A stretch of DNA of 61,633 bases, filler included, from Ionaspis alba (taxonomy: Eukaryota): the NCBI GenBank assembly GCA_964255285.1. It is 3 parts of 3 records of this genome, joined end to end, with 100 filler letters (N's around TTAATTAATTAA, not from the genome) between each part and the next. Parts side by side here need not be neighbours in the genome. Positions count along the whole stretch, not along the records: positions 41,210 to 61,633 come from CAXUUL010000246.1; 2 more parts are not named here. One strand, 5' to 3'. Under the pieces are notes generated by a model. It worked only from the letters and a program-made list of their open reading frames with translations, did no database searches and had not been told where the DNA came from. Positions 57,788-61,633 of this stretch are shown here, in pieces; the first letter of the stretch is position 1; the number at the start of each line of letters is the position of its first letter. The translations under genes were made by a program, and so were the position numbers.

Positions 57788-60342
57788 TTACATCTCAACC
57801 CGCTGAAAGAAATACACATACGCGAACTTCTTCATCTCCTCCACATCCACCGCCTTGACGACCTTCTCGTCATTGAACAGCACCCAAGCCTCTTCGTTCT
57901 CGTCCGGGATATGCTTGCGAATGAAAGCGACGTAATGCCTACCACGCATGCCATTAGCGACCATCTTATGATCGTCGGTTGAAGAGGAGTAATACATACC
58001 CAGCATGAATCGAAGCTCCCTTGTGACAGACAATGCTCTTCAATCTAAACCTCGCCGGTAAAGTCGCACTGCCAGGCACTTCCTTCACGGCGTCTTCTTT
58101 CGCTGCCGGTTCATCATCGCCAAAATCCCCTTGATCATCCGGATGACTGAAGACCCAGTCGAGCGCCCTGTTGACATCACCGCCCGTCTCCTTGAGCGCT
58201 TTCCTAGCCTGCGGCGGAGAGATGCCCATAGCCCCAAGGGTGTCAATGCTTTCCTGGCTGACGCTGGGGGTAGCATTTGCGCTACTGCTGGTGCCACCGA
58301 GATCAAGTGGCGCGTCGATATCTGGATCTTCCATATGCGCGAACAGCCAGTTCATCGCTGCCTCCGCGCCCGCGTTACCCGTCGCATGAAGAGCCTTCTC
58401 GCAGCGCACACGTGGGAAACCCATACCCTCCAGCTGGCTCATTGCGCCTTCGTTCGGCGCGAATGACACTTTGGCTTCTGGCACGTCTTCTGGAAGAAGT
58501 GCTTCGCCGTCTTTGAGGCCGGATGACATGTAGCTATCGAGGTCGAAAGGCGCGTCGTCGACTACAACTGGGACGTCTAGTTTCGTGGGTACCCAGTTGA
58601 CGAGCTCGAACCTACGGGCATTCACGGCGAGGGTTGTGGGGAAAGTTTTGAACAGGGAACGCTTTGTGAACCCGGCTTTGCTTGCGCAAGAAGGGCAGGT
58701 GAGCTCGACCATCTCTGGGGAGGTGAAGATGTCGAGGCATTCTTTGAGAGAGACAGGTTCGAATTCGTCCTTGGGCTTGTCTTTTCCGGGTTCTCCGTTG
58801 GTGTGACCAGGTTTTCTGCGGACGGGGACGGGGATCGAGATGTTGTCTTGTTCGTCGGTACGGTAGCGGACTTTCTTACAGGAGAGACACTGTAGACGTT
58901 GCTCCATCACGAAGCGGAAGGATTGCACAGGGTCGGGGTGAGTGTTAGGGTGTGGGGAGCGGCTGATTAGCTTGAAGAGGTGTAGGAGGAGCTCGAAGGC
59001 ATCTTGTTGGCGCATGGTGGAGAATTCTTCGTGGCCGTGACCGACCAGATGCTTGAGCATGGCTGGAGCTAAGCCTTTCTGGTGGGGAATTTCGGGAGAG
59101 TGTTCATTCGTGATGATGTCGGTGTCTGGGATTGAGTAGCGACCAGACAAGAGTCCATCGGCGAGCTTTCTGAGCTGCGTCTCGAGATCCTCTGCTGGAT
59201 TTTCGACCTCAGCTGCGGTGTCTCTGGGTTGGTAATACCGCTGTTGAAAAGCCGGCAAGGAAAATAAGCACTGGAGAGTACTAGCTAGGTAGCAGCTATT
59301 CCCCAGGTTCTTCAGTCCAGTGAATCCTTCGCCAAAGAGTGGCTTGAGCTCCTTCCCATCTTCCGTAGTCATCGAGAACTCCCATCTCAAGTTCTGCTCG
59401 ATCTGCATTTCCGTAAGACTCTTCTCCGTTTTCTGGCGCTCGGCAATATTGATGCCCCAGTGAGCTAGATGTGCCGCAAGATTTGTGTCAATCCGTTCCT
59501 CGTTGCATTGGTAACAGTAAACATCCGCTGTCCCCTCTGGAGTAATGGATCCTAGTTTCACAGCGACGGCGTGCGAAGTCGCGTCTGCGTGTGCTAAACC
59601 ATGACTATTGCCTCCGACACCACCAAACTGAGCTCGACCGCATCCAAGGTTGCCACATTGGAGGCAAAGCCATAGGTTCTCTTTGAGATCGCAGGAAGAG
59701 CAGTGGCCAAGGTCTGAGATACGTAAGTCCCAAAACATGTAATTCATAAATTTTGCTAGAGCGCGGACCTTGTGATTCAATCTGCCTTGCATCCTCTTGC
59801 ATCAATCCCAAGGTATGCTCGCAAGGGGTAAATTCCTGCTCCCAAGCCTTCACTTCCTGCTGTCTTGCGAACGTGTTCGCCTTCAGTACACCCTCAATAA
59901 CACCCGGTAGTTTCCCAGCGGACGGATCCACATCCTGAACCCCGCATTCGAAGCAGTTGACTAGTATTTTGGTGTCGTGACGGTCCTCCTCTGTCTCTGC
60001 AGCTATAGCAAGCTTCGAGATCTTCTGTGGTGGCTCATCACGCTGGATCTTCTTCCTGGTTCGGCGAATGTTGAGCACGAGGGGATGTTTTGATTTTTGG
60101 CTGTGGAGTAGAGCGTGGTGGCGATCGCCTGTGCAGCCGCCATTGAAACAGTAGAGACAGACGTCAAGGCCGGTAGGGTGATCCTGGGGAAATGGTTAGA
60201 GACAGGTATAGAGGTGGAGAAGCAAATGTGGTCAAGGCACACTCACTATGGAATCAAAACATCTGGTGCAGTCTTCTCGGTACACAGACTGTGCTGGGCC
60301 CGGAGGATGAAGCTCAGGAGAGTTGGTATGCTTACATGACAT
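57788..60342 (-). CDS. UBP14: Ubiquitin carboxyl-terminal hydrolase 14 (USP5/isopeptidase T; ZnF-UBP, two UBA), 4 exons
   Basis: [12 protein letters not shown], Zn[18 protein letters not shown], Cys box [10 protein letters not shown], His box [14 protein letters not shown] and two UBA domains. Confidence 0.96.
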
Positions 60343-60929
60343 TGTAAAATATATTGACGCAATGCTTTGTGTGGTATTCGCTGTAAGAAGGTAATAAAGT
60401 TGCAGAGAAAGCCCAGATATGAAGTAGGTTGCTTTGACGAGCGTTACTGACTCCTCTAGGCTGCAATATTTCTTCACACAAGACTTTACGTATTCGAAAG
60501 TAGACGTGATCAACTAATATCAACCTGTCAGACAAGCACTATGACTGTTGATGGAAACACCTCGGGAGTGCACTCTATACGATCTACGTTCGCGAGGACT
60601 ACCTTAGCACCATATATCTCTGGTCAAATAACATCCTGTTAGGTAAAAAGCATGAGATATATGCTATGTACATTGCGTAACTGTTTGATGGTAAGCTACC
60701 TGCTAGCTCGAACATTCGAAACTTCGCCACAGAGAGAGATGAGTTAGTGGAACGAGGAAAGCAGGAATATCGATGAAGTCGCGAAAGAGCATCACGTGAA
60801 AACAGCCTGATAAGATCACAAAAGAAGCTCGTTGAACTAGCGCTTCACCACGTAACGCCGACTATGAGCCTCCCAGGTCTCCATAAAAATATACAAGAAC
60901 CGCTTGAAGGTCGTATCAGACAATTTTGT

Positions 60930-61633
60930 TCAGGCAGTAGCAGTCTGCTGCATCGGGGTATCCATCATCTCGACCTCCACCTTCGGCATCTTCCCACCAG
61001 TCCCTGACAGATCCGTGGACGCAGCCTTGGGATTCTTGGTGTAGTAGTTCGAAATGGCCGATTTGATGGCATCTTCCGCTAACATCGAGCAGTGCACTGT
61101 GAGCCATCAGCATTCATCCACCTCTCTCCTTTGTGCGTCCTAGCAGCTCTATTACGACTCACACTTCACAGGAGGCAGGCACAGTTCCTTCGCAATCTCC
61201 GTGTTCCTGATCTTCCCGGCATCCTCCAAAGTCATGCCCCTCACCAGCTCCGTCAAGTAACTACTGCTAGCAATCGCGCTTCCACAGCCAAAAGTCTTGA
61301 ACTTGACATCACTGATAGTATTTGAGGCAGGGTCGACCCGAATCTGGAGTTTCATGACATCGCCACATGCTGGTGCGCCAACAAGGCCGGTCCCGACATC
61401 GGAGTCGGTTTTCAGCATTGATCCGACATTGCGAGGCTTGCTGTAGTGGTCGAGCAGTGGACCGAGATGTTAGCATGATAGATGAGGATGAGAGAGGCTG
61501 GCTGGACATATCTTTTTCGTGATAATTTCTCCGAGCATTTGATATTGATGGGAATGTCGCTGCAACTCTGGTCGGTCGGGTGGCGGTGGCCAGTAGTCTA
61601 CTCGCGCCGACTGGCGTAGGTATAATTCTTCGT
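60930..61633 (-). CDS. ISU1: Mitochondrial Fe-S cluster scaffold IscU/Isu1 (5' truncated by window edge)
   Basis: YHEK|VLDHYSKPRNVG, GLVGAPACGDVMKLQI, FKTFGCGSAIASSS and LCLPPVK|LHCSMLAEDAIK. Stop TGA at 60930. Confidence 0.96.
61457..61511 (-). other. Non-canonical AT-AC intron (55 nt) in ISU1
   Basis: Minus strand reads GAA AAA G|ATATGTCC...GCTAACATCTCGGTCCAC|TG CTC GAC CAC TAC. Removal restores EKVLDHY. Confidence 0.85.

Follow-up and report, generated by a model that had tools for sequence, protein, structure and literature searches.

A probable U2-type AT-AC intron in the mitochondrial Fe-S scaffold gene ISU1 of Ionaspis alba and related fungi

The ISU1 locus of Ionaspis alba raises the question of whether an intron that starts with AT and ends with AC is removed from a housekeeping gene in a fungal lineage that, according to the literature (which concerns the lineage and not the genome of this organism), has no U11, U12, U4atac or U6atac. 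The locus was analysed in a stretch of DNA of 61,633 nucleotides, filler included (hereafter, the window). In ISU1, which encodes the mitochondrial Fe-S scaffold, the interval 61457-61511 (minus strand) is very probably a genuine spliceosomal AT-AC intron and would otherwise be a normal Pezizomycotina intron of U2 type.

Structure of the ISU1 gene and signals of intron 1

Of a fungal ISU1/IscU gene, the 3' three quarters lie on the minus strand at 60930-61633, and the edge of the window cuts exon 1. The features were as follows.

61512-61633, minus strand: exon 1, presequence-like, continuing past the end of the window; its last codons are ...RRNYHEK, followed by G, the first base of a Val codon.
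61457-61511, minus strand: intron 1, 55 nt, phase 1, with AT-AC termini.
61506-61511, minus strand: 5' splice site ATATGT, which is GTATGT of fungi with +1 changed to A; before it, exon 1 ends in AAG.
61469-61474, minus strand: branch-site motif GCTAAC; its branch A (61470) precedes the intron's 3' end by 13 nt.
61457-61459, minus strand: 3' splice site CAC where YAG would be usual, with no AG between the branch site and AC.
61441-61507, minus strand: cryptic GT-AG pair, from GTCCAG at 61507 to CTACAG ending at 61441, 67 nt, in frame; not conserved and probably unused.
61163-61456, minus strand: exon 2, TG of the Val codon followed by LDHYSKPRNVGS...LPPVK and T.
61097-61162, minus strand: intron 2, 66 nt, canonical GTGAGT...GCTGAT...CACAG, with GT-AG at the same site in two related loci (L001 and L002, see below).
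60930-61096, minus strand: coding part of exon 3, LHCSMLAEDA... to the TGA at 60932-60930.

The translation of exon 2 (LDHYSKPRNVGS...) matched Pfam NifU_N (PF01592) with an E value of 5.7e-38 and a score of 130 bits (cut-off, 22), and exon 2 was 93-97% identical to its relatives and otherwise intact. The three cluster-binding cysteines were located in PACGD and GCGS of exon 2 and in LHCS across intron 2. The exon 1 peptide was rich in Arg, Ser, Thr and Ala, and its first acidic residue appeared only at HEK (start codon outside the window); the start codon probably lies a few bases beyond 61633, and the relatives begin with ML/MF-RR.... Among the matches listed, the proteins closest to that of the window were from lichen-forming Lecanoromycetes, and the C-terminal tail was almost that of a Xylographa entry. 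The downstream neighbour of ISU1, an open frame at 59605-60195 on the minus strand, was Cys/His-rich and by eye resembled a zinc-finger, ubiquitin-hydrolase-type domain.

Around intron 1 the minus strand reads ...TAT CAC GAA AAA G, then ATATGTCCAG...CATGCTAACATCTCGGTCCAC, then TG CTC GAC CAC TAC. Joining at the AT...AC ends yielded HEK-V-LDHY within a 193-codon open frame (counted from the window edge), and this conserved junction was given by the AT...AC ends only. A sliding junction was rejected, and its position is fixed: exon 1 closes with G but the intron with C, and the intron opens with A but exon 2 with T. Retention of the intron in the window shifted the frame, a stop being reached at codon 107 (counted from the window edge). 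A preliminary description of this DNA had proposed an intron at 61457-61511 whose AT-AC ends restore YHEKVLDHY, with GCTAAC at 61469-61474 and no later AG, and with a frame shift upon retention of the 55 nt, and all of these points were reproduced. Its identification of ATATGT as a U2-type site with a G1A change was likewise supported, the relatives having ATAAGT or ATACGT at this place and ATATCC being found at none of the four loci compared.

Intron 1 in related genomic loci and protein models

Metagenome contigs were scanned with exon 2, and 80 loci were kept. Seventy-four of them were uninterrupted and showed 63-74% identity; the other six were fungal-like (88-93% identity or intron-interrupted) and were compared in detail. 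All three interrupted fungal genomic loci (L001, L002 and L006) contained an AT-AC intron at the same phase-1 site of the Val codon, as listed here.

L001, intron 1, 105 nt: 5' site ATAAGT; branch site GCTAAC with its A 12 nt from the end; 3' site CAC / TG.
L002, intron 1, 128 nt: 5' site ATAAGT; branch site ACTAAC with its A 11 nt from the end; 3' site AAC / TC.
L006, intron 1, 90 nt: 5' site ATACGT; branch site GCTAAC with its A 21 nt from the end; 3' site CAC / TT.

Together with the window, the AT start, the AC end and AAAG as the end of exon 1 were thus seen at four of four genomic loci. The interiors of the introns could not be aligned and differed in length (55-128 nt) and composition, only the splice signals being conserved. 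Since the same rare termini occupied the same site in every one of the three readable relatives, their occurrence is more than chance, and the check suggested earlier, namely whether the AT-AC ends are conserved in ISU1 genes of other Pezizomycotina, came out positive for these fungal loci. In L006 an AG precedes the AC by 6 nt, and the absence of AG after the branch site is therefore not a general rule. Excision by a non-spliceosomal route was rejected in view of the conserved 5' site and branch site. The window, L001 and L002 had a canonical GT-AG intron 2, for which the pattern search gave no match in L006. The remaining three fungal-like loci (L003, L004 and L005) were contigs of about 1 kb with complete open frames of 190-204 codons, in which both intron sites were empty and HEK-V-LDHY was continuous; they look like cDNA or transcripts, although no poly(A) tail was found.

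Two further observations were made on the genomic sequences. L006, a more distant relative whose comparison with a protein atlas yielded generic NifU clusters only, had an extra canonical intron (L006:1262-1363, GTAAGG...TGCAG) inside the Cys codon of PAC-GD, which was missing from the window, L001 and L002. Record 11 of run X2 (151 letters, depth 2.3; another organism of the same study) aligned to 61416-61459 and covered the start of exon 2 and only the last three intron bases, CAC; upstream it showed a branch-like motif, GCTGAC, and an AG directly before CAC, with the 5' end of the intron lying outside the contig. The record could add a fifth locus with AT-AC ends or represent a variant with GT-AG ends and one more residue. 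When runs X2 and X3 (same study, other organisms) were compared at 80% likeness, intron 1 was not covered beyond this record.

The same site was followed in annotated proteins. Searches with exon 2 provided 240 proteins, consisting of the best 120 of 4492 (at least 175 residues) and the best 120 of 8000 (54-174 residues); 232 carried the fungal-type motif, and eight were set aside as not fungal-type. Among the 232 fungal-type ISU1 models, 169 were continuous across the intron 1 site and 63 were not, two of the latter being uninformative (P0006, with a bacterial-type N-terminus, and P0158, which starts at the motif). The other 61 entered intron 1 from the 3' side, and all of them showed Leu (C+TN) instead of the expected Val (G+TN), which gives C as the final intron base; the residue before this Leu was Ala in 16, Pro in 13, Ser in 11, Leu in 18, Thr in 1 and Val in 2 models, all of which are possible as NNA codons. 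At the other end, in-frame read-throughs from exon 1 gave HEK-D (G+AT) in 15 of 15 models and HEK-G (G+GT) in none, which gives A as the initial base, and their next residues fitted sites of the ATAAGT, ATATGT, ATACNT and ATGAGT types. In models starting in the +1 frame with M-[RK]-K-x, x was Ile or Met (ATN, implying AT) in 21 of 22; the exception, P0193 (M-R-K-S-W), had Ser, which does not fit an AT start. The counts of 61, 15 and 22 are not independent observations, there being 54 distinct upstream 10-mers among the 63 models and many close relatives. In P0054, P0020 and P0100, intron 2 was also mis-modelled, with inserted or frameshifted residues after LPPVK, which shows that ISU1 annotation errors occur beyond the AT-AC site as well.

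Named carriers of the AT-AC state were Geoglossum umbratile, Trichoglossum hirsutum, Xylographa carneopallida, Sarcosagium campestre, Pycnora praestabilis, Piccolia ochrophora, Candelina mexicana, Saccharata proteae and Periconia macrospinosa. By taxonomy look-up, five of these nine fell into four classes of Pezizomycotina (Geoglossomycetes, Lecanoromycetes, Candelariomycetes and Dothideomycetes), and the remaining four are assigned to the same classes. To judge from these sequences, the AT-AC state appears to date back at least to the ancestor shared by Dothideomycetes, Lecanoromycetes, Geoglossomycetes and Candelariomycetes. By these data it need not be universal, as the 169 continuous models may include lineages in which the intron is absent or canonical; this caveat concerns many Leotiomycetes and Sordariomycetes and some Lecanoromycetes, and it holds where predictors allow only GT-AG. 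Same-species pairs of an intron-bearing model or locus and a cDNA-like model were sought and none was found, the best exon-1 identities being 0.38-0.62 and 0.39-0.54 and the mature-protein identities at most 0.95; in an exon 1 search among the longer proteins, none of 36 candidates scored, and thus no transcript from a close relative came to light.

Alternative readings of the interval

The accuracy of the letters was examined in run X1, the one public run in which 60700-61633 was detected (98% of its sampled words); no RNA run was listed for this interval. Its Logan contig record 8 (430 letters, depth 120.5) was equal to 61204-61633 with 0 differences and 0 gaps; run X1 is possibly the source of the assembly, and the contig excludes a slip of the consensus and is no independent confirmation. 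The preliminary description had pointed out that GT and AG in the raw reads at these positions would indicate an assembly error; the X1 contig (not an independent source) agreed exactly with the AT-AC letters. An error of assembly or sequencing, or a decaying pseudogene, is thus extremely unlikely: the locus does lie at the very end of the window and is present in a single public run, possibly the source of the assembly, but the contig of depth 120 is identical over 61204-61633, the same termini recur in three unrelated contigs, and exon 2 keeps the identity to relatives given above and is otherwise intact. Within 60731-61203, which takes in the 3' UTR, exon 3, intron 2 and the end of exon 2, run X1 also contained a second version (depth about 34, against about 120 for the main one). 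The two differ by 13 substitutions and by 3 insertions of one base each, most of which fall in the 3' UTR and intron 2 and none within 61234-61633; two strains or haplotypes in one sample could account for them. Granted that the letters are correct, splicing might still use GTCCAG...CTACAG, a pair which had been described beforehand as replacing VLDHYS and which indeed exists in frame, exchanging six conserved residues for two. That the spliceosome here uses this pair and makes a protein without the six residues is very unlikely, even though both sites are present, removal of the 67 nt keeps the frame and the branch site would be 28 nt upstream. The donor GTCCAG is weak, having no purine at +3 and no G at +5, and the residues that would be deleted are present in all 169 contiguous models. 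The acceptor AG belongs to a Ser codon (AGC) situated 15 nt from the start of exon 2, where L001, L002 and L006 have TCC or TCT and no AG, and the analogous GT donor and internal AG of L006 would be out of frame; the in-frame alternative exists in the window only, and not in L001, L002 or L006, because of an accident of the Ser codon.

AT-AC termini are also found in U12-type introns, the branch sites of which are TCCTTAAC-like. Neither the 5' motif ATATCC nor the branch motif CCTTRAY occurred in any of the four introns (window, L001, L002 and L006); the U12-type 5' site /ATATCCTT was found in none of the four, the U2-type consensus apart from +1 in all four, and a U2-type branch site ([AG]CTAAC) was situated at the usual distance, 13, 12, 11 and 21 nt from the 3' end, respectively. 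An excerpt of PMC5029451 gives /ATATCCTT as the U12-type consensus, and according to an excerpt of PMC4324775 the ordinary introns of Trichoderma longibrachiatum most often have 11-14 nt between the branch A and the 3' site. A U12-type intron, removed by the minor spliceosome, is scarcely credible here, since the two features that would recommend it, the AT-AC termini and a branch-to-3' distance of only 11-13 nt in three of the four loci, are offset by 5' sites of the form ATATGT, ATAAGT or ATACGT with ATATCC at none of four, by the lack of CCTTRAY at all four, and by the fact that a short branch distance is equally the norm for ordinary introns of the group (PMC4324775, in part). The reading of intron 1 as a major-spliceosome AT-AC intron is, at the level of sequence, well supported, because the U12-type motifs are absent, and the earlier suggestion that the major spliceosome acts through an A...C pair gains support from the splice signals and their conservation in the relatives. 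An Rfam search of the 61.6-kb window gave 0 matches, a result that says little on minor snRNAs.

Splicing route, persistence and known AT-AC systems

For removal of the intron by the major spliceosome, the 5' site would be read first by U1 and then by U6, over positions -2 to +6 without +1, and GCTAAC would pair with U2. During the second step, A and C would take the place of the first G and the last G in their non-Watson-Crick contact, so that the 3' site selected would be AC and not AG. Such a contact would explain the skipping of the AG located 6 nt upstream of the AC in L006, which at present is a prediction only. Removal of intron 1 is most likely constitutive. The AT-AC state probably persists because either single change, to GT-AC or to AT-AG, would cripple the splicing of an essential single-copy gene; such a double-mutation barrier between AT-AC and GT-AG would account for the conservation, and no regulatory role is needed. 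In an excerpt of the work of Frey and Pucker, AT-AC was aligned to AT-AC in 967 sequences and to GT-AG in 157 (PMC7072748), and this high conservation agrees with a two-mutation barrier.

Two further proposals concern the meaning of the termini rather than their reality. G1A 5' splice sites slow both catalytic steps, and the preliminary description had supposed that inefficient splicing could serve as a switch for Fe-S biogenesis, e.g., during iron or oxidative stress. In this form, which adds to the AT-AC explanation and does not exclude it, the intron would be real and its slow splicing would also act as a valve on ISU1 output under iron limitation or oxidative stress. Besides the slow catalysis, conservation of the rare termini across four classes and the frame shift upon retention in the window would be in keeping with such a valve; nevertheless it is unlikely. 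Intron length modulo 3 is 1, 0, 2 and 0 in the window, L001, L002 and L006, so that retention shifts the frame in the window and L002, and in L001 and L006 the length is in frame and stops are present; in 15 of the 232 models the intron is open and read through in frame. From the mixed lengths and the 15 open models it follows that there is no common retention product, and the supposed switch found no support. Inside the intron only the splice signals are conserved while the length varies from 55 to 128 nt, and the two-hit barrier explains the conservation equally well. Also improbable is a fossil origin, by which an ancestral U12-type AT-AC intron would have been taken over by the major spliceosome after Dikarya lost the minor one, its 5' site and branch site changing and its AT-AC ends being kept. 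The short branch-to-3' distance and the deep conservation speak for this origin, but such a distance is also normal for fungal U2 introns (PMC4324775, in part), and ISCU is absent from the supplementary tables of a catalogue of human and mouse minor introns (PMC6717393, in part), which is weak evidence against it. If the fossil origin were true, the locus would provide a datable conversion from U12 to U2 type without subtype switching.

U2-type AT-AC introns are a known rarity, and the ISU1 case is new and unusually deeply conserved; a literature search for an AT-AC intron in ISU1/IscU found none, the sole match combining AT-AC and IscU being unrelated human pseudoexons. Read as a major-spliceosome AT-AC intron, intron 1 would offer a natural, conserved test case in an essential gene for the rule that pairs the first and last bases as G...G or A...C, the minor spliceosome not being involved, and the upstream AG of L006 should be skipped if this rule holds. 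It would further indicate that a doubly non-canonical state can stay frozen across at least four fungal classes. For annotation the site is a trap, as 61 of the 232 ISU1 models, named NCBI and JGI entries included, have a wrong N-terminus or an intron-encoded insert, which could be repaired by predictors that allow AT-AC here or by a curated ISU1 rule. The AT-AC intron alone reveals no new control of Fe-S biogenesis.

Among known systems, U12-type AT-AC introns share with the ISU1 intron the terminal dinucleotides and the short branch-to-3' distance; they differ from it in the 5' site and the branch site, and the lineage of the host lacks their machinery. Yeast lacks a minor spliceosome and yet removes an engineered AT-AC intron (Parker and Siliciano 1993, as cited in an excerpt of PMC5029451). 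This intron of the S. cerevisiae actin gene (G1A plus a 3' G-to-C change) has A and C as first and last bases and is removed by the major spliceosome, as that of ISU1 would be, and it supplies the mechanism assumed above; it is artificial and its splicing was measured, whereas the ISU1 intron is natural and was identified from sequence.

Natural AT-AC junctions have been recorded in RNA-seq of ascomycetes. The nested RPL30 intron of yeast is a side product of 1-2% with a 5' site unlike the U2 consensus (PMC5029451, in part), and AT-AC accounts for 69 of 14305 junctions in Trichoderma longibrachiatum (PMC4324775, in part). In Fusarium graminearum, two genes with RNA-seq-supported AT-AC introns are listed in supplementary file 4 of PMC3577648, as far as parts of that source go, namely FGSG_08743 (347 nt) and FGSG_10073 (52 nt; confirmation primers in supplementary file 8). 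FGSG_10073 was considered as a possible ISU1 gene, but its length (786) and the position of its intron do not suggest so. The two Fusarium introns would be helpful for comparison if U2-type AT-AC introns of Pezizomycotina were surveyed. The RPL30, Fusarium and Trichoderma junctions are like the ISU1 intron in that AT-AC occurs in fungi without a minor spliceosome; however, they are survey counts or a side product, and none of them is reported as ISU1 or as shared between classes.

Metazoan U2-type ('type II') AT-AC introns, e.g., those of sodium-channel genes, were reportedly described by Wu and Krainer in 1997 and by Dietrich et al. in 1997. According to an excerpt of PMC5029451, which cites Sheth et al. 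2006 for such introns as well, a few dozen are known in metazoans with /ATAAGT as their strong consensus. These introns and that of ISU1 have in common the AT-AC termini, a 5' site that is otherwise of U2 type, the lack of U12 motifs and conservation between species; the metazoan consensus /ATAAGT is exactly the site of L001 and L002, and ATATGT of the window is one base off. In contrast to the metazoan introns, the ISU1 intron resides in a housekeeping Fe-S gene of a fungal lineage without the minor spliceosome, is very short (55-128 nt), carries a strong CTAAC branch site and extends over four classes.
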